64,000 nt of DNA from an uncultured Spirochaetales bacterium (GCA_964428555.1 CAYRYS010000002.1:1086-65085); one strand, 5' to 3'. Positions 7,156 to 22,583 are shown, numbered from the stretch's first letter. A program made the numbers and translations. Notes: a model not told the origin generated them from the letters alone.

Positions 7156-7720
7156 TACATCGAATGGTAAAAGGCACATTGAAGATGTAAAAATACAGTT
7201 TGTGCTGGAGGTGTATGAATCTATTAATAAGCAGATCCAGCATATGGATATTAAAACTTCTATCTTGCTTTCTTGGAATGGAATCAGTGCTGTTCTGCTT
7301 GGAAGAGAATTGATTGTGATGGTTGCTGCACATATGCTGAATTTCGCAACAGGCATAATGGCAAGCTGTTCTCTTGTTCTGCTTATTATATCAAGTATTT
7401 ATGTTTACACAGTTCTAAAACCGCGGGTAGGCGCAATCCGGGAAACCAATTTTACCGGGCTTTTATATTCGGGCGACATCCTTTCCCTTGGAAAGGATGC
7501 CACAGAGCGTATGAAGCGGTATATTGATGAGCTAGTTGCAATAGAGTCGCAGGAAGAAATATACCAGCAGTTCGTTAAATCCATAGTCTTAATTGCAGAC
7601 ATACAGAACCAGAAGCACAAAAAGTTTATTCAAGCTTTAGCGTATACTGCTGTAGCTTTTGCCCTGCTTGTAGCTCTTATTGCAATAGTAGGAATTCAGT
7701 CTACAAATCCGGGGTTCTGA
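7148..7720 (+). CDS. small three-TM membrane protein, resembles the DUF5706 / Pycsar TM-effector (PycTM) family
   Basis: The ATG overlaps the last 8 nt of the upstream kinase gene, with a GGGGAG SD 11 nt upstream. An N-terminal amphipathic helix ends in HMDIKTSILLSWNGISAVLL, which recalls the aD-K-a..ll..ng motif I remember for DUF5706. There are two TM helices in the N-terminal half, a helical soluble segment, and a C-terminal TM (ALAYTAVAFALLVALIAIVGI). The family assignment is from memory only. Confidence 0.45.
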   Translation: MSNTSNGKRHIEDVKIQFVLEVYESINKQIQHMDIKTSILLSWNGISAVLLGRELIVMVAAHMLNFATGIMASCSLVLLIISSIYVYTVLKPRVGAIRETNFTGLLYSGDILSLGKDATERMKRYIDELVAIESQEEIYQQFVKSIVLIADIQNQKHKKFIQALAYTAVAFALLVALIAIVGIQSTNPGF

Positions 7721-8137
7721 TTATTCACCGATTATTTTTACTAGTACCCGCTTTCTTCTTTGTCCGTCAAACTCTCCATAAAAGATTTGCTCCCATGGCC
7801 CGAAATGCATTTTTCCTTTTGTAATTGCAACCACAACTTCCCTTCCCATAACCGAGCGCTTTAGGTGGGCGTCTGCGTTGTCCTCTCCAACATTATGGCG
7901 GTACTGTGCAACCGGTTCGTGGGGTGCGAGCTGCTCCAGCCATACATCCATATCATGATGAAGGCCTGATTCATCATCATTAATAAAAACACTAGCAGTA
8001 ATATGCATTGCGTTTACAAGCACAAATCCTTCCTCTATGTCGCTTTTTTGTACAAGCTTCTCAATTGTGGGGGTAATGTTAATAAACTCCCTCTTTCTTT
8101 TCGTGTTAAACCAGAGCTCTTCTGTTAATGATTTCAT
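7721..8137 (-). CDS. YjbQ/UPF0047 family protein (secondary thiamine-phosphate synthase-like)
   Basis: The 138-aa product has the family-typical FINITP..., [36 protein letters not shown] and [13 protein letters not shown] segments. It has an ATGA start/stop overlap with the upstream MscS gene. Confidence 0.85.
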
Positions 8138-8967
8138 GTCTCCTCCTCTTCTGTTTCTTTGGATTGATTTTCATTTATAATAATCCTATAGGGTTTTGGA
8201 ATAATAATTCCTTCTTTCTTAAAATCTTCCTGTATAGACTGGAAAATTGTATTTTTTACAGTGACGTAATTGCTCTTCTCAAACCAGACTCCAAGCAGTA
8301 CGGAAATAGACCATTCTTCGAACTCTTTAAACAGGATTATCGGTTCCGGTTCTTCCAGGCAATGAGTGTTTTCATAAGCTATTTTTTTTAAAACTTTTTG
8401 CAGTTTCGGTAAATCTGTCTGAAGATCAACGCGCAGTGAAAAATCAAGTCTCCGAATTGGGAACTTTGTAATATTCACTACGTTTGTATTTAGAATCCGC
8501 TCATTAGGAATTCGAACAAATTGATTGTCGAACTTCCGTATTTTTATGGAGAGCAGGTCAATAGAATGAATGATACCTGTTATATTCTCTACTGACACAA
8601 CATCTCCGATTTCGAAAGGTTTTTCAGAAATTAAAAACATTCCGCTGATAATATGGGAGAGGCTGGTCTGTGAAGCGATACCGACTGCAATACCTACTAC
8701 ACCTGCAGCACCGAAGAGAGTAGCTGCCTGTACACCAAGTTCGCTGAGTACGAAAAACACAATTATTGTCAAACCAGTATAATTTATTGTTTTGGTAACA
8801 AGCATTTTTATCTGGTCAGTTGCTTTTTTTAGCAAAATTTTTTGGGTTAGGGCAATTAGTATACGCAGAATGAGAATTCCCGTAATGATAAATACCAGTA
8901 ATGAGAGTGTCTGGGTGAAAAAATGTGGTGGTATACTATTGATAAAGTTAGTAAAAACTTCAGTCAT
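8134..8967 (-). CDS. small-conductance mechanosensitive channel (MscS family)
   Basis: Three N-terminal TM helices are followed by the MscS pore/beta-domain signature [39 protein letters not shown]...[25 protein letters not shown]. Confidence 0.85.
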
Positions 8968-8979
8968 CTTATTTCCTCG

Positions 8980-9768
8980 CTAAAATCCTGTGAAGTATTT
9001 TATTACTGTAAAGCTTTTTCTTAATATGCTCTGTTCAATCGGTATCCTTGGACCACTAATCAGTTTCGGGGCTTTGTATTCATGGGGCGGTTTTTTCGAA
9101 AAGTTTATTTGGCTTTCCTGGTCCTGTCCTTTAAACTGAATACTTACTTGGTTGGTGACCAATGCATCTTCTGCTGAGAAAAGACTGAGGTATTCAACCT
9201 GTATACAGCTCCTTTGGAAGGTGAGTGTGTTTCCTGTGGTGTTTTTAATCTGAACAGGACAGACTGCTTCTGTCATTACAGGATGGTAATCACAGTCCTG
9301 TGTTAGCAGGGAAGAACCAAGTGCATAGCTTAAAAAACCGGAATACATATCCCCAAACCATGTTTCAGATAAATCGACAATAGGAAGCTCAATTAGAAGG
9401 TCCTTCTTTTTTCCTGCCAAAGCTTGGACAAATAATGGGATGGTGAAAATGAAGGACCCGGATTGGCCGGGAAGTATACTAATATTTTGATTCGGTTTAA
9501 TGACTACCGGTTTATCAGGAAGCGTCGGCTTGAGCGTAAATAGGGGAGAGGAGGAATGAATAAATCGGTCCCATTCAACATCATCCGGATTTTCAGAACC
9601 AATCTGGAAATTTGCTTCGGTTTCTTCATTGTCATATGTATTTGTGTAGGCTATTTTCCATTCACCTTCTTTATGGTGTGCCCAAAGACTTAATGGTCCG
9701 AGTTTCCATGAATAGTTTTTTTGTGAGTCCAGGGGGTATTCCCTCCAGATAGTAGTGCTTTTCTTCAT
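8980..9768 (-). CDS. hypothetical protein (beta-rich, no TM helix, no motif recognised)
   Basis: A 262-aa ORF packed between neighbouring genes, with a 2-nt gap upstream and a 12-nt gap downstream, on the same strand. Coding is inferred from its length and operon context only. Confidence 0.55.
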   Translation of the reverse strand: MKKSTTIWREYPLDSQKNYSWKLGPLSLWAHHKEGEWKIAYTNTYDNEETEANFQIGSENPDDVEWDRFIHSSSPLFTLKPTLPDKPVVIKPNQNISILPGQSGSFIFTIPLFVQALAGKKKDLLIELPIVDLSETWFGDMYSGFLSYALGSSLLTQDCDYHPVMTEAVCPVQIKNTTGNTLTFQRSCIQVEYLSLFSAEDALVTNQVSIQFKGQDQESQINFSKKPPHEYKAPKLISGPRIPIEQSILRKSFTVIKYFTGF

Positions 9769-9770
9769 CT

Positions 9771-10739
9771 TTAGTAGTTTCTGCCTTTCCCTGAATCTGT
9801 TATTGACATGAGTTCCTTTGGGTAAGGATGCAGAAAGCTCTGATCTTTTAGCCAGTCATCTTCAAATCTGATAGCCCATGACTGGAGCAAGTGGAGCACA
9901 GTGCTGAGGGGAACTCTTTCATCACGATATTCTTCTGCAGTATTAAGAAAGAACTGCTTTTCATCCGAATTAAGGTTGTCCGATACGCCGCCGAATGCAT
10001 GGTGAAGTACATTAACAATAGATGAAAAATTCGGAGGCTCTTCGAATAAACTTCTGAGTACTGATTCGTATTCTGATATCAATTCATAAAAGTCCCGCTT
10101 TTTATGTGTGGCTACGATGTTTCCCAGTACCCTGAGCTTTGACTGACTGTATCCCATAAACAGGAGTTTGTTTTTTGTATGATACTCAAGCAGGGCTTGG
10201 AAATTATTCTCCTTTTTCACTTTGCGGAACCATGCAAGCGCCCATAAAGAAGTAAAGAAATGCTCGCGAATCGTGAAATTATTCAGTCTTCCTTCATCTT
10301 CCAAAGGATGGCCTGGAAACACTTCGCTCATTCTGCCGCCGAAAAAACCCGGCCCTTTTCCCGGTTGGCTTGGATTTTCTAAAGAATTGTATATCTTAAC
10401 ATCTTTAAATCCGCACGATGGAGAACGGGATTTTAAAATAATTCCGTCAATTTCAGGTAATGATGCTATGTATTCCTCGGTATATGTTTCCATTTCACGG
10501 GTGATTTTTTTCTGAGTAGCAGGCTGATACAGAATCCTTTCACCATTCTCATTAACTATTCGAATAGGGTCTCTCGGGACACCAAGGCCGATTTCTACTT
10601 CCGGACAGGAAGTAATAACTTTGGCAAATTGTCTCAGTCCAGAGACTGGATCTGAATTTATAGTTATCCCATTGTATCTGCAGCTTGCAAACCCAAGACA
10701 TTTACTGATAAATACTAGTGGCTCGATTTTTTCCGGCAT
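9771..10739 (-). CDS. DUF523 (TudS/2-thiouracil desulfurase-like) - DUF1722 (YbgA-like) fusion protein
   Basis: The N-terminus has the Cys-rich DUF523 pattern SKCLGFASCRYNG...CPEVEIGLGVPRDPIRI. The C-terminal half has the YbgA-like segment LLEYHTKNKLLFMGYSQSKLRVLGNIVA. Confidence 0.8.
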   Translation of the reverse strand: MPEKIEPLVFISKCLGFASCRYNGITINSDPVSGLRQFAKVITSCPEVEIGLGVPRDPIRIVNENGERILYQPATQKKITREMETYTEEYIASLPEIDGIILKSRSPSCGFKDVKIYNSLENPSQPGKGPGFFGGRMSEVFPGHPLEDEGRLNNFTIREHFFTSLWALAWFRKVKKENNFQALLEYHTKNKLLFMGYSQSKLRVLGNIVATHKKRDFYELISEYESVLRSLFEEPPNFSSIVNVLHHAFGGVSDNLNSDEKQFFLNTAEEYRDERVPLSTVLHLLQSWAIRFEDDWLKDQSFLHPYPKELMSITDSGKGRNY

Positions 10740-10748
10740 TGTAACTCC

Positions 10749-11462
10749 TTATCTTGCAAAATGAACCTCAACTTCTTTCATGGTACCATTAAATATGTCT
10801 TGGATATATGTTCTACCTCTCCTTTCCGCTGTTTCTAATATACCTTCTTCAATTGCTCTTGCTTCAGCATGGGATTGGATCACTCCGCTTAATTGCTGCC
10901 AGTTGCCTGGGGTAATATGAAATTCAGGATAGGGATAGGAGTCCGGTTGAAAATCTTCAATACTGGAATGAACAATCTCTGCATTAGGAAGGGTGATGAG
11001 AATACGGTCCTCTTCTTCTGTAATTGTAATCTCTCCTGAAGAATCCTCTGAGATATCGAATCCTGCAGTAATAATCGATGTTACAACCACAAAGCTTCTC
11101 GGGTTTCGTAATAAAGATAAGCCATACTCCTGCGCCATACGGTATACTTCTAGATATTCACGCTCCTGGTCTGTAAGCAGCTCAAGGTTCCGTCCAGCTG
11201 TGGACAGAATACTCGGCCAGTTTACATTTGCAGGAACAAAGTCGAATGGGAATACTGTTTCATAGATATACTGGACCGTGTGGATTTGAAAAATACTTCT
11301 AATTTGTGTAAGCATGATTTCTGAATGGGTCCTGGTCTCTGTTCGGATAATTTGGAAGTTTGGTAACAAAGCAGTTAAAGATGTATTAGTGAACAGCAGT
11401 ACAGCAGCAATAGTAGAAAACAGGATAACTGTTACTATCATGAGAAGGAGGATCTTTTTCAT
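10749..11462 (-). CDS. membrane-anchored DUF4230-like protein
   Basis: N-terminal TM anchor. The segment IRSIFQIHTVQYIYETVFPFDF and the overall ~230-aa layout resemble DUF4230. It has an ATGA overlap with the upstream paralogue. Confidence 0.5.
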   Translation of the reverse strand: MKKILLLMIVTVILFSTIAAVLLFTNTSLTALLPNFQIIRTETRTHSEIMLTQIRSIFQIHTVQYIYETVFPFDFVPANVNWPSILSTAGRNLELLTDQEREYLEVYRMAQEYGLSLLRNPRSFVVVTSIITAGFDISEDSSGEITITEEEDRILITLPNAEIVHSSIEDFQPDSYPYPEFHITPGNWQQLSGVIQSHAEARAIEEGILETAERRGRTYIQDIFNGTMKEVEVHFAR

Positions 11463-12022
11463 GGGGTCACCTCCTGTTCTTCAAAATAGGAAAACTCTAG
11501 CTCTCCCATATTCAGTGGAGTAAAAATCTCCCTGATAACACGTTCCCCGTTTGCCTGTGCAGTTTCAAGAATTCCTCTAGATACCGCATCGTTTTCTATT
11601 TCAGTCTTACCTATTGCAATGGGCCGATAATAATCAGAAAGCTCGATCTGTCTACCTCGCTGAAAGGAAAAGTATTCATGTATTGACTGTTCGTCCGCAT
11701 CAATAGAAAGAATCTCCGGTTCAGGTAGGTGTATTACTATACCGGATTCGGTACGGTTGAGAGAAACCCCATGGGTGAGATTGAATCCTGCATTTACTGT
11801 AATATTCACGGAGAAAAGGAGCTCTCTGTTTGATAATGAGAGAAAGAGTGCGGTTTCTTCTTCGCTGAAATAGATTACATCCCTGTATGTCATCTCAACT
11901 GTAGGAAGCAGTAATATTTCTTCTACTTGGGACCGTACTTCAGAAAGGGAAATTTCCGGTTCCTGGTTCTGGCAGCTGAAAAAAAGAACTAAAGTAAATA
12001 ATATAATAATACACTTTTTCAT
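11459..12022 (-). CDS. DUF4230-like lipoprotein
   Basis: Signal peptide with lipobox (LVLFFSC). The segment LLLPTVEMTYRDVIYFSEEE parallels the neighbouring paralogue. There is no SD, and a TTGTCT-18-TATAAT promoter ends 7 nt before the ATG. Confidence 0.5.
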   Translation of the reverse strand: MKKCIIILFTLVLFFSCQNQEPEISLSEVRSQVEEILLLPTVEMTYRDVIYFSEEETALFLSLSNRELLFSVNITVNAGFNLTHGVSLNRTESGIVIHLPEPEILSIDADEQSIHEYFSFQRGRQIELSDYYRPIAIGKTEIENDAVSRGILETAQANGERVIREIFTPLNMGELEFSYFEEQEVTP

Positions 12023-12089: not shown

Positions 12090-12701
12090 TTAGGCTCGCA
12101 GGTGCTTTCGAATTTCATGAAGCAGCTCTGAATGGGTTTGGGCAACCGGAATATTCTGATAGTCATTTACTATTGACTGTGGGGGGCGGAAAAGAACACC
12201 TTTTCCTGCTTCTTCAATCATGGTTAAATCGTTATATGAATCACCGGAAGCAATAACATTGTAATTCAATGCTTTGAGTGCTAGTACAGCTTTCCGTTTT
12301 CCGTCTTCTTGTCTGAGCTGGAAGCCGGTTATTTTGTTGGTGTTATCATCAACTATAAGAGAATTACAAAAGAGTGTCGGCCAGTCAAGCTGCCTCATCA
12401 GGGGTTTTGCAAACTGGGTGAAAGTATCTGAAAGTATGATTACCTGTGTTTCGCTGCGCAGGGTGTCCAGGAATTCTTTTCCTCCCTCTAAAGGAGCCAT
12501 AGAGCTGATAACATTTTGTATGTCCTGAAGTGTTAGGTTGTTTTCTTCGAGTATTGCAATTCTTCGGTTCATGAGCTGTGAATAGTCAGGAACATCTCTT
12601 GTTGTTAACCTTAGTTCTGAGATACCGGTCTTTTCAGCAAAGGCAATCCATATTTCCGGAACAAGAACACCTTCCAGGTCTAAACAAACAATATGCTGCA
12701 T
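12090..12701 (-). CDS. thrH: phosphoserine phosphatase / homoserine phosphotransferase bifunctional protein ThrH
   Basis: From MQHIVCLDLEGVLVPEIWIAFAEKTGI...TTRDVPDY...LSDTF..F..PLMRQL..PTL.C...QLRQ.D.KR...GDSYND the product is near-colinear with Pseudomonas ThrH as I remember it. An AAGGAGGG SD lies 6 nt before this ATG, so the 15 extra codons in the ORF track are probably not translated. Confidence 0.9.
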   Translation of the reverse strand: MQHIVCLDLEGVLVPEIWIAFAEKTGISELRLTTRDVPDYSQLMNRRIAILEENNLTLQDIQNVISSMAPLEGGKEFLDTLRSETQVIILSDTFTQFAKPLMRQLDWPTLFCNSLIVDDNTNKITGFQLRQEDGKRKAVLALKALNYNVIASGDSYNDLTMIEEAGKGVLFRPPQSIVNDYQNIPVAQTHSELLHEIRKHLRA

Positions 12702-12854
12702 ACATACCCTCCTTTTCTGTGCTTTGCAATTATACAAAAAGAACATGTCTTGTGTAACTCATTTATCTCTGTTTTCTTTTTTTCCTTGAGTTTTTTTTAA
12801 TGCTGTTCTAGGGTGGGATAAGGAGAGTCTCCGTTTTCCGGGCTGTATAAGAAG

Positions 12855-13236: not shown

Positions 13237-13932
13237 GTGAAGAACAAAATAGCCTTTTTCATTGTAAGTATAATCATTTTATTCTGTGTTTCCTGTTTTG
13301 TTCCCCAAGGCGGAGAAACTCTATTGCATTGGGCAAGTGCAAACGGCCATACGGATATAGTAAGACAGGCAATAAGCACCGGAGCAGATGTTAATGCAGA
13401 GGACTTGAATCATGAGACGCCGCTGTACCTTGCTGTGCGCTATGGGCATTCAGAGATTGTGGAGTTTTTGCTGAGGGATGATCGAATTGTCCCTTCTCTG
13501 TACCCAAGAAACGGGACGCTTGTGCATGTTGCTGCCAGAGAAGGCCATTCGGATATTGTTGAAAGTTTAATACAGTGGGGACTGGATCCTTCTATTGAAG
13601 ATGAACACGGATATACTCCCCTCTATTTTTCATGCAAAAACAATCATCCGGATACAGCCCTTGTACTTGTGCAAAGCGGTGCTGTTCCGCAGGCTGAGCT
13701 CCCTGAAGGACGTACAGTGGCTCATTGGGCAGCTCTCTTGGGAGATTCTGAGCTTTTATCTGCCGCAATTAATGCAGGCATAGATCTTAATATATTAGAC
13801 GACTATCGAAAGGTCCCGTATCATTATGCAGCAGAACAGGAGAATTCTGAGCTTGTCACTATGCTGCTTGAGAATGGTGCGGACCCTTCAATTCCCTGGC
13901 CGGAGATAACAATTTGGGAATGGTTTTGGTAG
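13237..13932 (+). CDS. ankyrin-repeat protein with N-terminal signal peptide / probable lipoprotein
   Basis: GTG start after a GAGGGG SD. Hydrophobic leader IIILFCVSC. At least 5 ankyrin repeats are visible (TLLHWASANGHTDIVRQAISTGADVNA, TPLYLAVRYGHSEIVEFLL, TLVHVAAREGHSDIVESLIQWGLD, TPLYFSCKNNHPDTALVLVQSGA, VPYHYAAEQENSELVTMLLENGADP). Confidence 0.85.
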   Translation: MKNKIAFFIVSIIILFCVSCFVPQGGETLLHWASANGHTDIVRQAISTGADVNAEDLNHETPLYLAVRYGHSEIVEFLLRDDRIVPSLYPRNGTLVHVAAREGHSDIVESLIQWGLDPSIEDEHGYTPLYFSCKNNHPDTALVLVQSGAVPQAELPEGRTVAHWAALLGDSELLSAAINAGIDLNILDDYRKVPYHYAAEQENSELVTMLLENGADPSIPWPEITIWEWFW

Positions 13933-13945
13933 AGAGGCGGAATAC

Positions 13946-14677
13946 ATGGATTGGCAGCATTTACTAGAGAAAACAAAAGAGGTACTTGGGAAGACCGGAT
14001 CTGTATTGAAGGGGGTCTTTTCTTCAATCGGAACAGCAGTCACGTATGCGTGGAAACAGATTCAGAGGGCGGTGAAGCTGCGTCCTGTGCATTTTGTACG
14101 GGCTAAGATCCTTAGGTTTTATCTCCAGAGCAAGATTGATTCTCTCGGTTCAATCCAAGCATTTTGGCAGCCTGTACTCTGGGTAGCTGTGAAAGTTACT
14201 GTTGTTGTTCTGCTGTCAATAAAGATTTATAGCTTTCATGGAGCGGTTGGTAATTGGTTTGAAGAAGTGGTCGCCTTTTTTCGGCTTGAGGAAATCTATA
14301 ATTTTGACTTTCCCTCTTCGAGCTTTTTTCAGCGCATCTCCAGATATCTGTTTCTGTTTGTGATAGCTTACTATGGCTTGTATTTTCTGTACTATCAGAT
14401 TCTTGCCTTCTTTTCTGCCTTAGTAATTGATACAGAAAGTAATAGGGCGTATTACGTAAAAAATTCTCTGCTTTCTAAGGAACTATACATCCTCCCTCTC
14501 CCTGAAATGGATATGGTTGTTCTCAAGCAGAACCTGATTTTTCGATTGTTCAGTATGGGGTCGGTTGTTTTTCATAAAAACTCAGGAGAAACTATTACTG
14601 TCTCAAGTATTTTTATGGCGCCTTCAGCAGTAAAACTGCTTTCTGCTCAAAAGAAGGAAGAACCTGGAAAAGAGTAA
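13946..14677 (+). CDS. membrane protein with C-terminal bacterial PH (bPH_2/YdbT-like) domain
   Basis: TM helices are followed by NRAYYVKNSLLSKELYILPLPEMDMVVLKQNLIFRLFSMGSVVFHKNSGETITVSSI, which matches the bPH_2 pattern of a TM hairpin followed by a PH fold. It starts 13 nt after the ankyrin gene. Confidence 0.5.
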   Translation: MDWQHLLEKTKEVLGKTGSVLKGVFSSIGTAVTYAWKQIQRAVKLRPVHFVRAKILRFYLQSKIDSLGSIQAFWQPVLWVAVKVTVVVLLSIKIYSFHGAVGNWFEEVVAFFRLEEIYNFDFPSSSFFQRISRYLFLFVIAYYGLYFLYYQILAFFSALVIDTESNRAYYVKNSLLSKELYILPLPEMDMVVLKQNLIFRLFSMGSVVFHKNSGETITVSSIFMAPSAVKLLSAQKKEEPGKE

Positions 14678-14681
14678 AGAG

Positions 14682-16220
14682 ATGAATTCCAATGCAGCGG
14701 CACGCTCTTTATTCCTTCCAGTTCTGCTCGTGGGGATCTTCCTTGGTATCCTTTATTTTCTGTTTCATATGCACTTTATGCAGCAGTTTCTGGACTGGGA
14801 CCAAATTGTGTATGCGAATAATACCTATAGTGCTCTTGTTCCTGGAAGAATGCCACTATTAAATCCTCATCATCTTCATGTAGAGACCGGAAGCATGGTC
14901 TTCCATCAATTTATGTCAGAATACTTTGGAGATGCAGGATTTACTGATGTAATGTTTAACAATAGGATGAAATCCCTTCTTTTTGCTTCTATCGGTATTA
15001 TTTGCGCATTTCTTTTGCTGTACCGGATAACAGGCTCCATACTTCTATCATTGGCCGGCACCCTGCTTATTGGTGTAAGCCATGGATACCTTCATTATGC
15101 AACAAAATTCGACACACCGATATACCCAGCTGCAATTTTTATTGTGACTGTGTTTATTCTTGAAATATACAGGCATGCTGTGAAAAAACCCGTGGTTTGG
15201 CTCCTTGTTATCCCAACCGCTTTTCTTCTTTTTGCCGGTGTCATGGCACATCAGTATATGGGGCTTGTCTGTGTTTTGCTCTGTATAGCAATTGCACTTC
15301 CTCCATGGCTCTTCAATCTTCCTTGGAAGCCTGCACCTTTTTTATTGCATAGAAAGAAAGGTGTAGTTCCAGTACTCGAGACTAGCGCGCCCACACGGTG
15401 GGCTGCAGCAGTAAGTATTGCTGTTTTGGGAATTGTATTTATTGTTGCCGGATACTTTTGGGCCGGAAAGACAATGCAGAATCTTCCATTTCATGAGGAT
15501 GATCCTTCTGTAGGAAGGGGTGTTTTTCGCGATAGTATGTTTTACCAGTGGCTCTTTTTGTATGAAACCACGAGCGATCTGTGGGGAGATGGATTGGAAG
15601 AGTTTGCTCCTGAAGCTCCGCTGCGCGGATATACTGATGCATGGGTTGCCCAGCCGGGAAATGTAGACAGGTTTAACCGTAACTATTCCTTTGCTTATAA
15701 TTTCAGGGACTTTGATTCTGATACAGCAGTGATACACAATATCGTTGGACTCATCACTCTTATAACTCTTTTCGGCTGCGTCATCTATTTTCCCATACTC
15801 TGGGGCATGTATGGGCGCACCTTTTTCCTCGTGTTTGCAAGCTTTATTTCTTTTTCTTTGTTTACCACATACTGGGAACCATACTATTTTGAGTTCTGGC
15901 TTATTCCGCAGATATCGCAGGTGTTTTTATTTATTATGCTTATTGATGCTGTATTTACCAAGCTGAAGAAAGGCATTTCGGTAAACCTGAAGCCTCTTGC
16001 TGCAGGGATAGTGCTTTTCTTTGCATTTTCGCTCTGTGCGCATAACCAGTATTATTACCTGCTTCCCTATTCACGTACGAAACAGCTGGAAGGCTATTCC
16101 AGGGATTGGGATGAAGGGTATTATATGCCCTTGTACTCAGACGAGGTATACAGAAACCCGGATAATGTATACGGCAGTATATATAATACAGAGCCTGGTT
16201 CAGTGTTTTCGAGGGAATAA
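14682..16220 (+). CDS. polytopic membrane protein, GT-C-like glycosyltransferase candidate
   Basis: The 512-aa product has at least 11 hydrophobic helices. An acidic motif, LDWDQIVYANN, falls in the first loop after TM1, where GT-C enzymes (ArnT, PMT, PimE, Emb-type) carry their modified DxD motif. It starts 4 nt after the previous gene. Confidence 0.45.
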   Translation: MNSNAAARSLFLPVLLVGIFLGILYFLFHMHFMQQFLDWDQIVYANNTYSALVPGRMPLLNPHHLHVETGSMVFHQFMSEYFGDAGFTDVMFNNRMKSLLFASIGIICAFLLLYRITGSILLSLAGTLLIGVSHGYLHYATKFDTPIYPAAIFIVTVFILEIYRHAVKKPVVWLLVIPTAFLLFAGVMAHQYMGLVCVLLCIAIALPPWLFNLPWKPAPFLLHRKKGVVPVLETSAPTRWAAAVSIAVLGIVFIVAGYFWAGKTMQNLPFHEDDPSVGRGVFRDSMFYQWLFLYETTSDLWGDGLEEFAPEAPLRGYTDAWVAQPGNVDRFNRNYSFAYNFRDFDSDTAVIHNIVGLITLITLFGCVIYFPILWGMYGRTFFLVFASFISFSLFTTYWEPYYFEFWLIPQISQVFLFIMLIDAVFTKLKKGISVNLKPLAAGIVLFFAFSLCAHNQYYYLLPYSRTKQLEGYSRDWDEGYYMPLYSDEVYRNPDNVYGSIYNTEPGSVFSRE

Positions 16221-16224
16221 TATG

Positions 16225-16563
16225 TTATTTCAAAAGGAATACTCCGGAAGTGATGAGCAGAACTGCGATAAACCTTTGAAGCGTAAAATTCTCACCAAGA
16301 AGACCTACTGCAAGAAGAAAGGTGATTACATATCCGAGACTGGTAAATGGTCGGGCATAGCTCAGGTCAAAGTACTTGAGTACTGTCATCCATAGAATGA
16401 AACTGACTCCATAACAAAAAAAACCGGCAATTACACCCCAGGACTGCAGTAAGGAAAGATAAAATTCGAACCCTTCTTGTGGTATTCTGTTTATTCCGTA
16501 CTTAAAAAAGAACTGACCGAAAGCTCCGAGAGCGACAGACGAGAATAGCAGGAGGTATCCCAC
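16225..16563 (-). CDS. SMR/EamA-half four-TM protein, ArnE/ArnF-like lipid-linked sugar flippase candidate
   Basis: The 112-aa product has 4 TM helices. The pattern SSVALGAFGQFFFKYG ... YARPFTSLGYVITFLLAVGLLGENFT...ITSGVFLL parallels E. coli ArnE as I remember it. Confidence 0.6.
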   Translation of the reverse strand: MGYLLLFSSVALGAFGQFFFKYGINRIPQEGFEFYLSLLQSWGVIAGFFCYGVSFILWMTVLKYFDLSYARPFTSLGYVITFLLAVGLLGENFTLQRFIAVLLITSGVFLLK

Positions 16564-16564
16564 G

Positions 16565-16963
16565 TTAGACCTCTTTTTTTATGAAGACAAAGCGTTTGTC
16601 AAGAAAATACTTTGTAATATATCCAATGGTAAGTCCCAGGGCTCCGCCGATATATTTTGCATAGTCAGTTTGAAAGATAAAATGTGCGCTGAGTTCTGAA
16701 AACCAGAAAATTAATGTAGTAAACACACCCATGAATGAGTAGAGGAAAAACCTGGAGACATTTTCCGCATGTCCTGAAGTCTTATAGTAAAAAATAAAAC
16801 GCTTGTCTAACATGTATTTAACTATCAGTCCTGTTCCTGTTCCTGCAATTATTGCTAGGTATAGTGACAAGCTCCCGGAATAAATGAAAAGAACGGCCTT
16901 TTGCGTGGCTAGGTTGATTCCCATTGCTGTGAGCGCGAAAATTGTATATTTTACTGCAAGCAT
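16565..16963 (-). CDS. GtrA family membrane protein
   Basis: The 132-aa product has 4 TM helices and two copies of the GtrA hallmark (KYMLDKRFIFYYK and KYFLDKRFVF). It lies 1 nt upstream of the ArnE-like gene. Confidence 0.8.
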   Translation of the reverse strand: MLAVKYTIFALTAMGINLATQKAVLFIYSGSLSLYLAIIAGTGTGLIVKYMLDKRFIFYYKTSGHAENVSRFFLYSFMGVFTTLIFWFSELSAHFIFQTDYAKYIGGALGLTIGYITKYFLDKRFVFIKKEV

Positions 16964-16971
16964 ATGTTCTC

Positions 16972-17844
16972 CTATCCTGTAAAAACAAGCAGTCCGATAA
17001 TTGAGAGGGCCCAGAGGATGCAGGTTACTATAATTGATATATCGGTAGTTACCGCGTCAGTAGGATCTTCAATATCCGGATCAGTGAATAGCAAAAGAAT
17101 GTACCGGAAAATACCGTAAATTACAAAAGGAACAGTAAATATAATACTGGAAGTACCGGTCCTGCTGATAACCTCAATATCGATCGAGTACATTGCGTAG
17201 CAGATAATTGTTAATGCAGAAGATATAATAATAAAGATGTTCAAAGTTTCTAGAGAATACTCCTGCAGTACCTTTCTGGTATTGTTTTCTTGAACGTGGG
17301 CCAGCTCGTTTCTTCTTTTTCCGAACCCGAGAAAAAGTGAAAGGCAGAAGGTGGTAAGAAGCATCCAGTTTGAAAGCTGGACTCCAATAGCAAATGTACC
17401 TGCTGTCACTCTAAGCACAAATCCAAGTGCAATAATGATGACATCCAGAATAGGGAAGCTTTTGAGCCATTTAGAATATATAATATTCATTGTTATGTAG
17501 AGACAGATTACAACACCGGTTTGCAAGGTGCTGAATGAAAGCAGCAATACGGTTAAGAGCCCAAGTCCTAGTAAAAGCGCTGCTGCTTGTGTTACTGGAA
17601 CTCTTCCGCTGGCAATAGGCCGGTCCTTTTTCTTCGGGTGCAGTCTGTCCTGGTGTTTATCAAGGATATCATTGAGTATATATACAAATGAAGAGGCAAA
17701 ACAAAACGCAAAGAACGTTGTGGAAAGGTGAACCAGAATTATCTGCTCCACCCGGAGGGTGAAAAGAAATGGTGCAAGCACAAAGGCATTTTTAATCCAA
17801 TGCTTTATCCGAATAAGGGATACTATATCCTGGATTTTCTTCAT
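16972..17844 (-). CDS. UbiA-family prenyltransferase of the decaprenyl-phosphate 5-phosphoribosyltransferase (Rv3806c-like) type
   Basis: The first Asp-rich motif is NDILDKHQDRLHPKKKDRPIASGRV. The H-P-x-K-x-x-R-P-I-A-S-G context is the one I associate with the polyprenyl-phosphate phosphoribosyltransferase subgroup rather than with quinone or haem prenyltransferases. About 8-9 TM helices. Confidence 0.75.
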   Translation of the reverse strand: MKKIQDIVSLIRIKHWIKNAFVLAPFLFTLRVEQIILVHLSTTFFAFCFASSFVYILNDILDKHQDRLHPKKKDRPIASGRVPVTQAAALLLGLGLLTVLLLSFSTLQTGVVICLYITMNIIYSKWLKSFPILDVIIIALGFVLRVTAGTFAIGVQLSNWMLLTTFCLSLFLGFGKRRNELAHVQENNTRKVLQEYSLETLNIFIIISSALTIICYAMYSIDIEVISRTGTSSIIFTVPFVIYGIFRYILLLFTDPDIEDPTDAVTTDISIIVTCILWALSIIGLLVFTG

Positions 17845-17845
17845 A

Positions 17846-18883
17846 TTAAAAGAGTGCCTTTGCTAATTTAAGAATTCCCTGCTTCCATGGAACCCTGTGG
17901 CTCACTCCGCTATTTTGAGAAAAATTATCAAGATTATTTAAGTACCAGCGGTAGTTTCGTAGGAGAGCATCCTTGTTCGAAAACTTTGGGGTGAATCCAA
18001 GTTTTTTCTCTGCCTTTTCTATGTCCACAAAGGAATCTTTAGAAGCTGTTTCATATACCCATTTATAAAGCGGTGAGAGATGAAAGAATTCAAGAACCCG
18101 CAGTGTCCAAATCATTGGTGCTGCTGGAAAGCCTTTAATCTTTCTCCCGAATCCAGCTTCATCCAGTACTGCTTGGTAGTCTTCCTTCATGGTGGTAAAT
18201 TCCTTGGCTCCTATATTAAATGTATCATTGACCCGGTCTGCTTCCAGGGTCATGCACAAATAAATAGATTCGCAGAGGTCTTCAACATCCAGAAACTGAT
18301 ACCTGTTGTCCCCTTTTCCGATCATAGGGAAGTTTTTTCCGTCCTTTGCCCAATCATAAAACAGAGCAAATACTCCAAGCCGTTCTGGGCCGATAAAGGA
18401 TTTCGGTCTGATAATGGGAACGGTCATCCCCTTTTCCCTATATTCAAGACAAACGTTTTCTGCCTGGATCTTTGCTTCACCGTAGGGACCGACACCATCG
18501 AGCTTGTCCGACTCTACCAATGGGTGATGATCCGGTATTCCATATACTGCGGTGCTGGAAATTTGTATTGCCCGTTTGACATTATGCATGAATGCTGCAT
18601 CCATTACATTTCTTGTTCCCTCAATGTCAGTTGAAAAAATATCCTTTTTCGAATACAGAGGGAGCGCAGCTGCAGTATGGATAACAATGTCTGCTCCGTC
18701 CATACATTGGTCTACACAGACCCTGTCACGGATATCCCCTTTTACTGCTTCTATTTCATTCTTTTCCGGGTAATCGAAGTCGACAATGTCGAGAGAGATT
18801 ATATCATTTATTCCTTTTTCTTTGAGGTACCGGATTAGGTTGATTCCCAAAAAACCGCTTCCCCCTGTTATGAGTACGCGCAT
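17846..18883 (-). CDS. NAD-dependent epimerase/dehydratase (extended SDR, GalE-like)
   Basis: MRVLITGGSGFLG Rossmann motif and the YGEAK catalytic Tyr-x3-Lys. A GGAG SD lies 6 nt before the ATG at 18883. The ORF track starts two codons earlier at a GTG. Confidence 0.85.
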   Translation of the reverse strand: MRVLITGGSGFLGINLIRYLKEKGINDIISLDIVDFDYPEKNEIEAVKGDIRDRVCVDQCMDGADIVIHTAAALPLYSKKDIFSTDIEGTRNVMDAAFMHNVKRAIQISSTAVYGIPDHHPLVESDKLDGVGPYGEAKIQAENVCLEYREKGMTVPIIRPKSFIGPERLGVFALFYDWAKDGKNFPMIGKGDNRYQFLDVEDLCESIYLCMTLEADRVNDTFNIGAKEFTTMKEDYQAVLDEAGFGRKIKGFPAAPMIWTLRVLEFFHLSPLYKWVYETASKDSFVDIEKAEKKLGFTPKFSNKDALLRNYRWYLNNLDNFSQNSGVSHRVPWKQGILKLAKALF

Positions 18884-18931
18884 GGACACTCCTATGGATT
18901 TGAGTATGGAATTATTACAAATCTTTTTATT

Positions 18932-18983: not shown

Positions 18984-20618
18984 CTATTTATTATAGGGAT
19001 TAATGATAATAGCCTGGGTCCAAGGGTCTTTCTCTTTCAGCCGTGTTTTTTTTGCCTTATAGCTGGGGTGTGTCTGGATAGCAATCTGTTTTTGTTCAGG
19101 TAGATAATTGTAAAAGTCTCTAGTAAAACATATTTCTCCAGTGTTAGCAATGTTGCACATTCTGGAAGCAAAATTTACCGGTTTACCGATTAGGGTATAA
19201 TCTAACCTAGTCTCTTCTCCAATATCACCGATAATGACAGGGCCTGCGTCAATGCCGATACCAATCGGTAAGAGTTTATGTACCCCAAGCCCTGCCTGGA
19301 TATCAATTGCGACATCGTAGGCTTCTGATGCCCTGGATTCAGGGAAGTAGGCCATAATACCGTCTCCCATCACTTTGTTTATTCTGCCGCCTTTTGCCCG
19401 TATGTGCCCTGCAATGTATTCCTGCTGTTGGTTCAACGTCCGTACAATCTCATCCGGAGGTAGTTCTTCACTCCAGCCGGTAAACCCGCGAATATCGGTA
19501 AAGAAAATAATGAGCTTTGCTTTCCTTGCCATTAGCCGTTTTTCAAGGAGCACATCCACGTTCTCTTCATTTCCATACTGCATGGAGTACTGGGCTTTCA
19601 TGAGCTTATTTCTGGCAGAGCTAATCAGTGTGTCAGATCTAACTGTTTTCATTCCGTCCCAGCTGTGGACCTTCTTTCGGGTCATAGGATTAGCTACCCC
19701 AAGTTCATAGCTCTTTCTTGCAACCGAGTCAGTAAGCAGAGAGATTGCTGCTGGGCCGAAATTAATTGCTTGGTTAATTACATCGTCAAAGGTTTCTGCT
19801 TCAACTGGTTCATTTGTCCAGAACTCGAGCCATTGGACAGCGCTTTCGATAATACTTTCAAGGTCTTTATCAGTTGGAGGATGCTGGAGCGTTTTTAGTA
19901 ATTGTCCTGGTTCTGCTTCTTTGAGTATCTCAAGATATTCAGGAACTTGTTCCATAATTATGCCGCCGTGCTGGGGCAGAATATGTTCAATATCCATTGA
20001 TTTTAATTTTGAATAGGCATAATCCACAGGTTCGTGAGAGGCAATGTAGTGGTCTATAAAGCCTTTCATAAGGTGTTTATGTTCTAAAGAGGCGAACAAA
20101 CTCCAATCCTTATTAAAGACAGCAAATAAGTCAGAGGAGAACAGGGTCTTGGTTGTTTTGTCGTAGGTGCCCATTGTTCCAGCAAAATGAAGGTATGGAA
20201 GATGTACAAATTGCAGGGTCCTTCCGGAGGCAAGCTTTAGGGAGTCACCGTCTCCTACCGGCAGAATATTATTACGGAGTCCGTAATAGGGCAGGAAGAT
20301 TGCAGTCCGGGGATGGGCAATAATTGTGCATTCTGGATGGACCAGTGATTCGAGAAAGGGAATAAGTCCGCAGATGTCTGGATCCTGATGATGGGCGATT
20401 ATGTACTTAATCTGGTCTGGTTTTATCAAGCTTTGAATTTTACCGAGGATTAGGTCTCTGAAAAAGGGATGTCCTGGACCCGGGTCTATAAGCACTGCTT
20501 CATTGTTGTCGATAATGAGATATGGGTTGTTTGCAAAGCCTGCTTCGTAGTCAGCAAAGCCTACCCAATAGATGTCTTTGAGAATTTTAACTGCCTGCTG
20601 ATCATCGAGTCTTTTCAT
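18984..20618 (-). CDS. metallo-beta-lactamase-fold (flavodiiron/ODP-like di-metal) sensor domain fused to a class III adenylate/guanylate cyclase
   Basis: The N-terminal ~250 aa has FDP-like ligand-bearing segments IIAHHQDPDICG, TIIAHPRT, FSSDLFA and ILPQHGG. The C-terminal cyclase core has LIIFFTDIRGFTGWSE, KVMGDGIMAYF, IGIGIDAGPVIIGDIG and LIGKPVNFASRM. Confidence 0.8.
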   Translation of the reverse strand: MKRLDDQQAVKILKDIYWVGFADYEAGFANNPYLIIDNNEAVLIDPGPGHPFFRDLILGKIQSLIKPDQIKYIIAHHQDPDICGLIPFLESLVHPECTIIAHPRTAIFLPYYGLRNNILPVGDGDSLKLASGRTLQFVHLPYLHFAGTMGTYDKTTKTLFSSDLFAVFNKDWSLFASLEHKHLMKGFIDHYIASHEPVDYAYSKLKSMDIEHILPQHGGIIMEQVPEYLEILKEAEPGQLLKTLQHPPTDKDLESIIESAVQWLEFWTNEPVEAETFDDVINQAINFGPAAISLLTDSVARKSYELGVANPMTRKKVHSWDGMKTVRSDTLISSARNKLMKAQYSMQYGNEENVDVLLEKRLMARKAKLIIFFTDIRGFTGWSEELPPDEIVRTLNQQQEYIAGHIRAKGGRINKVMGDGIMAYFPESRASEAYDVAIDIQAGLGVHKLLPIGIGIDAGPVIIGDIGEETRLDYTLIGKPVNFASRMCNIANTGEICFTRDFYNYLPEQKQIAIQTHPSYKAKKTRLKEKDPWTQAIIINPYNK

Positions 20619-20882: not shown

Positions 20883-22583
20883 ATGGGAAATTTAATTGAT
20901 AAGTATTTAGGGAAAAAAGTTAAAGGCGCACGGGTCGTACCTCTTACTACAAAAATTATTATATTATTTGTAATATTTATCCTGGTGTCTAATTTTGCCT
21001 CCAACTATATTAACCTTATGCTCAACCGCGGTGAACTCTTGAAGCTTATGAACCGTCTTCTTGTAAAAGACTTGAAGGAAATGTATGGATTTGCGAATAA
21101 TCAGTATGAGATTTATCAGTATTCTCAGGATTTTGAGGAAGCGGTTAGCACTGTAGAAGAAAACGCACTTCTTGAAATGCGCGGAGAGCGCTCTGTTGGT
21201 TTAGGGATCCGTCCTGACGGCACCTATCTCTTTTTTGCATCTCCTTTGGAAAGAAGGGAAACTTTTACTGATGAAAATGCCCTCCAGAGAATGAACGAAG
21301 CCTTGGAAGAGGATTTGACGGAAAACAGCATTACCTTTATGCTGAATGGAGATCAGTATTTCGGTGTGTATAAATATAACCCCAGCTGGGACGTGTTTCT
21401 CCTCAGGGCTGAAGAGCTTAATGAGTTCTATGCTGAATCCTGGGCAATATTTAGAAATATTTCTTTGTTAATTATCCTTATTGCTCTTGTTTGTACTGCT
21501 TTAGGTACCTATATCATCAGGTATAATCTTCGTTTTGTTCACATTATTACTCATAAGATAATGGAGATGCATGAGAAACAGCATATTGATATTATCGATC
21601 TTTCCCATGCGCCAAATGATGAGGTCACGTATCTCGGTGCTTCCTTTAATGCGCTCTCTAGTACAATTAATAACTTAATGCGCATATTCCGGAAGTTTGT
21701 TGCGAAAGATGTTGCTCAACGGGCGTACAAAGAGCTGGAAATCCGTCTGGAGGGTGAGCCGAGAGACTTAGCGATTCTTTTCAGCGATATTAAGAGTTTC
21801 ACCTTTATTACAGAAACACTGGGAACTGATATCATAAAACTATTGAATATCCATTATCAGCGCGCGATCCACCGTGTTCACGATCACCATGGGGTAATCG
21901 GTTCAATTATTGGAGATGCCCTGCTCGCTGTATTCGGGACCTTTCATGAGAACACGGAGAATAAATCATTAAAATCTGTTTTAGCAGCTTATGAGATTCA
22001 GGCAGTGACTGCACAGTTGAGAAAAGAGATGAATGAACGGAGAGAAGAGGTTATTCGTGTTAAAGGTGGACTGACAAAGATTGAGGAACAAATATATAAG
22101 GCAGTGCTTCTTGAGGTTGGAGTAGGAATTGACGGAGGAGAGGTGTTTTACGGAAATATCGGGTCTACTGAGCGTATGACAAATACAGTCATCGGAGACA
22201 ATGTAAACTCTGCCTCAAGATTGGAAGGATTAACCAGAATTTATAAAGTGCCTGTTATCTGTTCGGAATATATAAAAAATGAAGTTCAAAAGGATATTGA
22301 CGATTTTTATTTTCTTGAGCTCGATACTGTCCAGGTAAAGGGAAAAACAATTGGAAAAAAAGTGTACTGGCCTGTAAGGAAAGAGTTTATTGATGCTGAT
22401 TTACAGAAAGATTTAGAGATTTTCCAATCTGCATTGGAGAAGTATTATGAAGGAGAATGGGAAAAAGCATACGAGATGTTCTCCTCTTGTAACTTGCCCC
22501 TTTCTGAAGTATTTGAAATGAGGACGAGAAATAGAGAATGTCCTGAAAACTGGAATGGTATATGGACAATGAAGACAAAGTAA
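20883..22583 (+). CDS. membrane-bound class III adenylate/guanylate cyclase (TM - extracytoplasmic domain - TM - HAMP - cyclase - C-terminal helical repeat)
   Basis: Two TM helices flank a ~170-aa external region. HAMP-like segment PNDEVTYLGASFNALSSTINNL. Cyclase motifs LAILFSDIKSFTFITE, GSIIGDALLAVFG, VGVGIDGGEVFYGNIGS and VIGDNVNSASRLEG. Confidence 0.8.
   Translation: MGNLIDKYLGKKVKGARVVPLTTKIIILFVIFILVSNFASNYINLMLNRGELLKLMNRLLVKDLKEMYGFANNQYEIYQYSQDFEEAVSTVEENALLEMRGERSVGLGIRPDGTYLFFASPLERRETFTDENALQRMNEALEEDLTENSITFMLNGDQYFGVYKYNPSWDVFLLRAEELNEFYAESWAIFRNISLLIILIALVCTALGTYIIRYNLRFVHIITHKIMEMHEKQHIDIIDLSHAPNDEVTYLGASFNALSSTINNLMRIFRKFVAKDVAQRAYKELEIRLEGEPRDLAILFSDIKSFTFITETLGTDIIKLLNIHYQRAIHRVHDHHGVIGSIIGDALLAVFGTFHENTENKSLKSVLAAYEIQAVTAQLRKEMNERREEVIRVKGGLTKIEEQIYKAVLLEVGVGIDGGEVFYGNIGSTERMTNTVIGDNVNSASRLEGLTRIYKVPVICSEYIKNEVQKDIDDFYFLELDTVQVKGKTIGKKVYWPVRKEFIDADLQKDLEIFQSALEKYYEGEWEKAYEMFSSCNLPLSEVFEMRTRNRECPENWNGIWTMKTK

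Follow-up and report, generated by a model that had tools for sequence, protein, structure and literature searches.

What is the function of a compact island of seven genes in the genome of an uncultured Spirochaetales bacterium? The island occupies positions 13237-18889 of a 64,000-nucleotide stretch of one contig (GCA_964428555.1, CAYRYS010000002.1:1086-65085), to which, at its full length, we refer as the window. A first-pass annotation, made from the sequence alone, had read its two convergent operons as a lipid-linked pentose glycosylation system, in which a polyprenyl-phospho-furanose donor is made, flipped across the membrane and transferred to an acceptor in the periplasm or envelope. 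Our analysis points in the same direction: the genes of the island probably make up a 'three-component' system for extracytoplasmic glycosylation with pentofuranose. Among the grounds for this general mechanism is a characterized precedent with the same logic, including a short-chain dehydrogenase/reductase (SDR) that alone sets the identity of the pentose (PMC11127046). The first-pass annotation had tied its proposal to three tests, namely the family of the UbiA protein, the fold of a 512-residue membrane protein and the linkage of the two operons in other genomes, and the proposal survives them.

Direct reading of the sequence confirmed seven open reading frames in two convergent operons, together with their coordinates and the spacing of the facing stop codons as first described. 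The original family labels (ankyrin, bPH, GtrA, UbiA, extended SDR) also held in Pfam and NCBIfam profile scans, for which the cut-offs set by those databases were used throughout, and in the case of bPH by fold. The features are as follows:

13237-13932, plus strand: predicted ankyrin-repeat lipoprotein, 231 aa (Ank_2 and Ank matches)
13946-14677, plus strand: bPH membrane protein, 243 aa (bPH_2, PH fold)
14682-16220, plus strand: predicted GT-C protein, 512 aa (model and fold search)
16218-16227, no strand: convergent junction TAA-TATG-TTA (sequence read directly)
16225-16563, minus strand: protein of the SMR/EamA superfamily with four predicted transmembrane (TM) helices, 112 aa (EamA match)
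16565-16963, minus strand: GtrA-family protein, 132 aa (NF037976)
16972-17844, minus strand: UbiA-superfamily protein, predicted polyprenyl-phosphate 5-phosphoribosyltransferase, 290 aa (NF008977, alignment to Rv3806c)
17846-18883 (ATG start) or 17846-18889 (upstream GTG), minus strand: extended SDR, 345-347 aa (Epimerase PF01370)

The genes are separated by 1, 8 and 1 nt in the minus-strand operon and by 13 and 4 nt in the plus-strand operon, and 4 nt (TATG) lie between the convergent stop codons. The island is a discrete, compact and self-contained unit.

Which enzyme would make the donor? The UbiA-superfamily protein scores 254 bits against NF008977, the NCBIfam equivalog model for decaprenyl-phosphate phosphoribosyltransferase (cut-off 234 bits), and its residues 5-282 align end to end to the mycobacterial enzyme Rv3806c (PDB 8j8j; E 1.3e-31). 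The residues of Rv3806c that bind Mg and the ribose, 5'-phosphate and pyrophosphate of phosphoribosyl pyrophosphate (PRPP) are listed in its structure paper (PMC10994848). Mapped through the alignment, 12 of the 14 residues contacting PRPP, Mg and the 5'-phosphate are identical in the island protein; the two functional residues that differ are Q135, changed to N, and Y157, changed to F, the latter a replacement also reported in some mycobacteria (PMC10994848). The stretch NDILDKHQDRLHPKKKDRPIASGRV (residues 58-82), which had been quoted in the first-pass annotation as resembling the Rv3806c type, is indeed present. Taken together, the model score, the alignment and the conserved functional residues argue for PRPP-dependent phosphoribosyl transfer to polyprenyl phosphate, making the assignment of the protein as a PRPP-dependent polyprenyl-phosphate phosphoribosyltransferase a well supported prediction.

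Proteins annotated as 'decaprenyl-phosphate phosphoribosyltransferase' are encoded on plasmids of Proteobacteria, Bacteroidota, cyanobacteria, Lactococcus, actinomycetes and haloarchaea, so that a non-actinobacterial host for this synthase is unsurprising. The partners of the synthase interchange from locus to locus, with an EamA transporter and a PAP2 protein in Marivivens, DprE1-like and DprE2-like proteins accompanied by GT39 enzymes in Chondrinema, and a HAD-IB phosphatase together with GtrA in Lactococcus. In the phage collection, the sole match to the window's phosphoribosyltransferase was contig MT837543.1 ('Bacteriophage sp.', 6.6 kb, unannotated, from human faeces), where positions 4877-5746 encode a protein with 37% identity to the synthase over 98% of its length.

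The candidate for the final transfer is the 512-residue protein, which has no sequence match in Pfam, NCBIfam or the PDB. A word-indexed search of 5.8 billion proteins returned 23 relatives, none with a Pfam domain and the few named ones from Spirochaetales bins, and an exhaustive profile search of 1.84 billion representatives gave only 272 matches, 53 of them below 1e-30. The weak tail of that search bears PMT_2 and TMEM260-like domains, both of which are GT-C families. A scan of one genome per species located 41 loci, all of them in Spirochaetota and including Brevinematales and Leptospirales. We regard the family as an orphan that is restricted to Spirochaetota and left 'hypothetical' by current databases.

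Besides the exhaustive profile search, only the fold search placed the protein. An AlphaFold2 model computed on the family alignment has a pLDDT (predicted local distance difference test) of 89.5 and a pTM (predicted template modelling score) of 0.92, and its top 31 matches in a Foldseek search of the PDB are all GT-C enzymes (STT3/PglB/AglB, DPY19, Pmt4, ALG3/9, ArnT, AftA/B, Emb), followed by unrelated transporters with probabilities below 0.2. The best structural matches are GT-C enzymes that glycosylate proteins (STT3/PglB, DPY19, Pmt4). Those to AftA and AftB are weak (E 0.02-0.08; AftA, AftB and Emb together E 0.02-0.3), and in Pfam the protein matches neither Arabinose_trans nor an Emb/Aft family. 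The model helices, the hydropathy profile and the positive-inside rule give an N-in topology with 11 TM helices, the last of which (437-465) is under the hydropathy threshold and was counted for its hydrophobic core. In this topology the invariant residues D38, D40, Y44, N47, N61, H63, H64, E68, D144, T145, H190 and E399 are on the periplasmic side and the invariant E404-W406 at its edge; the active sites of GT-C enzymes lie on the periplasmic side. The acidic motif LDWDQIVY, which had been noticed early on as GT-C-like, corresponds to residues 37-44. According to the model, the protein has a GT-C fold with a conserved periplasmic face, which upholds the GT-C-like label first given to it, and we predict it to be a periplasmic pentofuranosyltransferase. 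The model is nearly all helical and the protein ends about 45 residues past the last TM helix; a C-terminal beta-rich carbohydrate-binding module, as found in GT136, is not present in it. Comparison of the family by hhalign with the probable GT-C proteins of the Rhizobium CCGE531, Lactococcus and Haloterrigena loci gave no match.

In the public annotation this protein is called only from Met33 (P0001, 480 aa), so that TM helix 1 (14682-14777, plus strand) is lost. The start yielding 512 residues is backed by the alignment of homologues, in which the upstream helix is conserved, and by the confident fold of the model, and the start of P0001 is probably wrong. Within single bins, two to four paralogues of the GT-C gene occur on different contigs, mostly without a donor module (with loci from other genomes used for comparison numbered L001-L055, these are L007/L011/L017/L042, all from one bin, L009/L010, L008/L021 and L023/L045).

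Does the putative transferase act alone? Among 41 loci with enough upstream sequence, the bPH gene adjoins the GT-C gene in about 36, in most cases directly upstream of it in the same orientation, and often overlapping it. The pairing extends to a distant GT-C subfamily (22-26% identity), where the bPH proteins reach 520-640 aa, and it is the tightest association among the island genes, making the bPH protein a near-constant, near-obligate partner of the GT-C gene. Its bPH_2 match of 21.1 bits falls just below the Pfam cut-off of 22; an AlphaFold2 model (pLDDT 75.6) shows TM helices followed by a PH fold, and in a fold search the C-terminal 85 or so residues matched PH domains only. The family is tiny, with 8 matches, every one from spirochaetes. 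We know of no function in glycosylation for this class of PH-domain membrane proteins. One literature lead that appeared to name both bPH and GT-C was discarded, as it concerned an unrelated phosphatase called Bph.

The third product of the plus-strand operon has strong Ank_2 and Ank matches (E 1e-37 to 1e-38) and, like six homologues (L001, L003, L005, L006, L008, L015), carries a signal peptide that ends in a lipobox cysteine. A homologue is encoded near the GT-C gene in 9 of 26 loci of the close subfamily, and the protein appears to be a conserved periplasmic lipoprotein with an accessory role. Ankyrin repeats are protein-binding modules. A more specific, and rather unlikely, reading of these three proteins would make bPH and GT-C an obligate two-subunit transferase found in Spirochaetota alone that places pentofuranose on periplasmic or outer-membrane proteins, with the ankyrin protein as adaptor, or that, by way of the several paralogues in a genome, builds an envelope polymer containing pentofuranose of a sort so far not known from the phylum. 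Since the enzymes it matches best in fold glycosylate proteins, and since ankyrin repeats serve in protein binding, the acceptor may be a protein; both features are compatible also with a glycan or lipid acceptor.

Some GT-C/bPH pairs in other spirochaetes have neighbours of a different kind. Membrane proteins of the LtaS/EptA 'sulfatase' type (about 680-700 aa) lie beside such pairs at 1713-3737 and 11464-13560 of L013 and at 6802-8853 of L019, and one of the two L013 genes overlaps the end of the GT-C gene; these neighbours hint at an envelope glycolipid or polymer as acceptor. L019 as a whole combines GtrA, bPH and GT-C with a methyltransferase, a classical SDR and the LtaS-like protein. 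Genes of the adh_short family occur near pairs that lack UbiA, at 9163-9963 (minus strand) of L004 and 4880-5797 (plus strand) of L019, and these GT-C/bPH copies may use a different donor chemistry.

Do the two convergent operons form one system? When spirochaete loci were searched with profiles for each island component, four were found in which genes of both operons are joined in one co-directional operon. In L018 and L022, from Brevinematales and a related bin, the order is SDR-bPH-GT-C-UbiA-GtrA-SMR-HAD; L013 has SMR-SDR-UbiA-GtrA-bPH-GT-C, and L015 has SDR-UbiA-GtrA-ankyrin-bPH-GT-C. Such interleaving, on one strand, of genes that the window divides between two operons is strong evidence for a shared function, and hence that the two convergent operons constitute one system.

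The linked membrane proteins of the minus-strand operon offer two candidates for moving the lipid-linked sugar. The 112-residue protein had been labelled ArnE/F-like. ArnF is indeed its best NCBIfam match, and it reaches 39 bits on EamA (cut-off 28), yet it is well under both equivalog cut-offs (ArnF 56 against 99 bits, ArnE 32 against 92), so that we place it in the general SMR/EamA superfamily only, as a candidate flippase subunit. It is 29% identical to the EamA transporter of the Marivivens phosphoribosyltransferase locus, and homologues sit in the operons of L013, L018 and L022. The GtrA protein scores 160 bits against NF037976 (gtrA_1, cut-off 50), is encoded at the same locus as the GT-C gene in 8 of the 26 loci of the close subfamily, and is a second candidate flippase or carrier.

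Which pentose would be transferred depends on the SDR. It matches Epimerase PF01370 at 135 bits and has TGGSGFLG and YGEAK motifs, as an extended SDR and not one of the adh_short type, with no NCBIfam match above cut-off. It is the only redox enzyme in the island and the candidate epimerase of the lipid-linked pentose. Its gene lies 1 nt from the UbiA gene, and the two families adjoin in spirochaetes, haloarchaea, Streptomyces and Nonomuraea: the SDRs of Natronococcus AD-5, Halostagnicola and Haloterrigena (47-50% identity) and those of Streptomyces and Nonomuraea (41%) are encoded directly beside a UbiA gene, that of Natronococcus CG52 (49%) about 3 kb away, and in Neorhizobium and Rhizobium CCGE531 (34.6% for the latter, whose locus is named in PMC11127046) both genes share a locus. 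These are the closest relatives of the SDR among plasmid-borne proteins, and they share their records with the UbiA matches. This pairing across haloarchaea, actinomycetes and rhizobia supports a role of the SDR in the same pathway as the synthase. The high similarity between the haloarchaeal and spirochaete SDRs suggests horizontal transfer. The same module is seen in haloarchaea at 5133-11056 of the Haloterrigena plasmid NZ_CP149788.1 (L051), with genes for a PHP-domain protein, a phosphoribosyltransferase, an SDR that shares 47-49% identity with that of the spirochaete, and two GT-C enzymes, which carry the annotations DolP-mannose mannosyltransferase and GT39.

Conservation of the SDR greatly exceeds that of its operon partners. 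The protein shares 74-78% identity with proteins of Chloroflexota, Margulisiibacteriota/Saganbacteria, Acidobacteriota, actinomycetes and others, and belongs to a very large subfamily with at least 8000 relatives, all scored candidates at E <= 1e-40 and bearing generic names only. In the genome of Roseiflexus, the SDR sits beside LytR_cpsA_psr and MurJ genes.

The system had initially been called 'DPA-type', after decaprenyl-phospho-arabinose, and this label is not supported. No homologues of DprE1, DprE2, PAP2, PHP or GMC proteins were found in the window or the spirochaete loci; for DprE1 and DprE2, the tblastn probes were the DprE1-like and DprE2-like proteins of Chondrinema, searched against the window and 46 spirochaete loci. 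With DprE1, DprE2 and PAP2 missing, the mycobacterial two-enzyme arabinose route is not encoded, leaving the single extended SDR as the only epimerase candidate. The rule of thumb emerging from a survey of such loci, in which arabinofuranose-containing glycans go with DprE1/E2 homologues and xylofuranose-containing ones with homologues of the SDR ORF13 (PMC11127046), would make xylofuranose the product, an analogy to which we attach much lower confidence than to the general mechanism.

The mechanism we propose would begin in the cytoplasm, where the UbiA-type enzyme would move ribofuranose-5-phosphate from PRPP onto a polyprenyl phosphate, presumably undecaprenyl phosphate. A phosphatase, which the window does not encode, would then strip the 5'-phosphate, and the extended SDR with its bound nicotinamide adenine dinucleotide (NAD) would epimerize the lipid-linked ribose, most likely at C3 to give xylofuranose, by analogy with ORF13 of Citrobacter youngae O2. 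GtrA, the SMR-like protein or both would, judging by homology, flip the lipid-linked pentose to the periplasmic leaflet. There the GT-C enzyme would transfer the pentose via its periplasmic D38/D40 loop to a periplasmic or envelope acceptor, probably working together with the bPH membrane protein, and the ankyrin lipoprotein could serve as a periplasmic accessory that perhaps recruits the acceptor.

Several observations weigh against this mechanism. A 5'-phosphate phosphatase was found neither in the island nor in the rest of the 64 kb by tblastn with HAD, PAP2 and PHP probes, and the flanks of the island hold no acceptor-glycan gene cluster. Of the 26 non-redundant loci of the close subfamily, 7 have UbiA at a distance of up to 6 kb from the GT-C gene, and in the distant subfamily the two are adjacent in none of 19 loci; given this sparse linkage, the GT-C family as a whole may use other donors. 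Further, Roseiflexus, WOR-1 and Anaerolineaceae (L053, L054, L055) have SDRs of about 75% identity whose genes show no UbiA in the surrounding 8 kb, and because of these stand-alone copies the SDR may act on a substrate more general than a lipid-linked pentose. The linkage of the two operons, seen in the four joint operons, is partial overall. Four further close-subfamily loci contain partial donor modules, and it is reasonable to suppose that a genome's single donor module may supply several transferases. As to the phosphatase, the operons of L018 and L022 end in a HAD-IB gene, the one in L018 being a homologue (E 3e-28) of the HAD-IB phosphatase encoded next to the synthase of Lactococcus. 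We considered the window's own HAD gene (12090-12746) for this role and rejected it, since it encodes ThrH and shows no conservation in the neighbourhood of the system.

How do other explanations fare? The UbiA protein might, from its place in the UbiA superfamily (PF01040), be taken for an ordinary prenyltransferase acting on aromatic compounds or haem (UbiA, MenA or CyoE type), a reading that is effectively refuted. Its scores on the quinone, haem and chlorophyll models are far under the cut-offs (CyoE 38 against 210 bits, UbiA 30 against 275, ChlG 20 against 313), in line with the clade first proposed for it, and it conserves phosphoribose-binding sites that are absent from ordinary UbiA prenyltransferases (PMC10994848). 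It is also very unlikely that the convergence is coincidental and the ankyrin-bPH-GT-C operon independent, using another lipid-linked donor. That most GT-C/bPH loci, among them all those of the distant subfamily, have no UbiA within 6 kb would fit such independence, as would L019 with its other genes in place of a UbiA module; yet bPH and GT-C stand between SDR and UbiA in L018 and L022 and are contiguous with the donor genes in L013 and L015, the island is devoid of further genes for donor synthesis, for example a GT2 of the GtrB type, and several GT-C paralogues per genome would account for the copies that lack an adjacent donor module.

The remaining alternatives accept the pathway and differ in the sugar. 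One, which we hold to be unlikely, has the SDR epimerize C2, so that a single NAD enzyme would replace DprE1 and DprE2 and the donor would be polyprenyl-phospho-D-arabinofuranose. In its favour, the synthase is most closely related to the enzyme of the arabinan pathway, a GalE-like SDR that binds NAD tightly might in principle oxidize and re-reduce at C2, and several GT-C paralogues per genome recall the mycobacterial Emb/Aft set. Set against this are the missing DprE1, DprE2 and PAP2, the survey's association of arabinofuranose with DprE1/E2 and of xylofuranose with an ORF13-type SDR (PMC11127046), and a GT-C protein without family matches to Arabinose_trans or Emb/Aft and with weak fold matches to AftA and AftB. 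Distinctly unlikely, too, is a donor of plain polyprenyl-phospho-ribofuranose, with the SDR fulfilling a broader housekeeping role on a nucleotide sugar or another lipid. It would agree with the 74-78% identity of the SDR to proteins of distant phyla, in three of which no UbiA is nearby, with its failure to match a specific curated family, and with C. youngae O1, which works without an epimerase. The 1-nt spacing to UbiA and the recurrence of the pair in spirochaetes, haloarchaea, Streptomyces and Nonomuraea, that is across domains, argue instead for a shared pathway.

For the favoured three-component mechanism, the closest precedent is that of C. youngae O1 and O2, which has been characterized genetically and biochemically (Kelly et al., PNAS 2024, PMC11127046). 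There, one fusion protein joins a UbiA-type, PRPP-using synthase to a HAD phosphatase, the role of flippase is proposed for a 4-TM EmrE/ArnE-like transporter, and the GT-C transferase ORF12 founds the CAZy family GT136; in the O2 serotype, the cytoplasmic GalE-like SDR ORF13 alone switches the side chain from ribofuranose to xylofuranose (PMC11127046). The island resembles ORF12-ORF15 of C. youngae in its UbiA-type PRPP synthase, its small 4-TM transporter, its GT-C protein of roughly 11 TM helices, in which an acidic residue directly follows TM1, and its cytoplasmic GalE-like SDR with TGxxGxxG and YxxxK motifs. It differs in that its synthase has neither a fused HAD domain nor a linked phosphatase gene, its GT-C protein lacks a C-terminal carbohydrate-binding domain, GtrA is present besides the SMR-like protein, bPH and ankyrin proteins are conserved extras, and the island lies outside any O-antigen or capsule locus.

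With the mycobacterial decaprenyl-phospho-arabinose pathway (Rv3806c, Rv3807c, DprE1, DprE2, Rv3789, Emb/Aft) the island shares a homologous synthase with a conserved active site, a GtrA-family protein, final transfer by a GT-C enzyme and the occurrence of several paralogues per genome, whereas the flavin adenine dinucleotide-dependent oxidase DprE1, the classical SDR DprE2 and a PAP2 phosphatase are all missing from it, and its GT-C protein is not of the Emb/Aft type. The D-arabinofuranosylation of pilin by TfpW in Pseudomonas aeruginosa Pa5196/PA7 likewise combines, in a Gram-negative bacterium, the same synthase with a GT-C enzyme, there for a protein acceptor, but epimerization is of the DprE1/E2 type (PMC11127046) and the system sits beside the pilin gene; the island is linked neither to a pilin gene nor to any other gene that could be a candidate for the acceptor. 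The overall logic is also that of O-antigen glucosylation by GtrA/GtrB/GtrC and of the aminoarabinose pathway of ArnE/F-ArnT: synthesis of the lipid-phosphate-sugar is cytoplasmic, a small membrane protein (GtrA or an SMR pair) flips it, and its transfer falls to a polytopic enzyme in the periplasm. The island departs from them in having a UbiA-type PRPP enzyme as donor synthase instead of a nucleotide-sugar GT2, and from ArnE/ArnF in a 4-TM protein below both equivalog cut-offs.

The claim that the system is undescribed is overstated. It is not a new kind of system, as its logic was published in 2024 and described as widespread, with an optional SDR epimerase (PMC11127046). The candidate list of that study contains no spirochaete (PMC11127046), and our literature search found no paper linking spirochaetes to the three-component pathway, so that this is apparently the first system of its type noted in Spirochaetota. 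What is new here is the orphan, Spirochaetota-restricted GT-C family, its near-obligate bPH partner and the conserved ankyrin lipoprotein; the joint presence of GtrA-type and SMR-type flippase candidates is a further distinctive part.

If the proposed mechanism is correct, the three-component pentofuranose pathway would extend to a phylum without an earlier report, and some spirochaete envelope glycans would be predicted to receive ribo-, xylo- or arabinofuranose in the periplasm. To our knowledge, envelope glycans have received little detailed characterization in free-living and gut spirochaetes. A family labelled 'hypothetical', whose gene is mis-called in the window's own record, gains a predicted identity, and a class of PH-domain membrane proteins becomes tied to a GT-C glycosylation family by near-constant pairing. 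Finally, the analysis flags an SDR subfamily that is about 75% identical across phyla and stands beside a phosphoribose synthase from haloarchaea to actinomycetes under generic names only.

What surrounds the island is unrelated to glycans, comprising ThrH, a DUF4230 pair, MscS and nucleotide cyclases, and no paralogues of the island genes exist elsewhere in the window. At the convergent junction, where there is no room between the stop codons, a scan detected no terminator above the shuffle background, and a promoter scan gave nothing exceeding that background. The two tandem DUF4230 genes (10749-12022, minus strand) overlap by 4 nt and encode proteins with N-terminal signal or anchor sequences. 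Just past the other end of the island lie three class III nucleotide cyclases, at 18984-20618 (minus strand), 20883-22583 (plus strand) and 25032-27686 (plus strand), among which one carries a fused ODP-family metallo-beta-lactamase-like sensor domain and another a fused response-regulator receiver.

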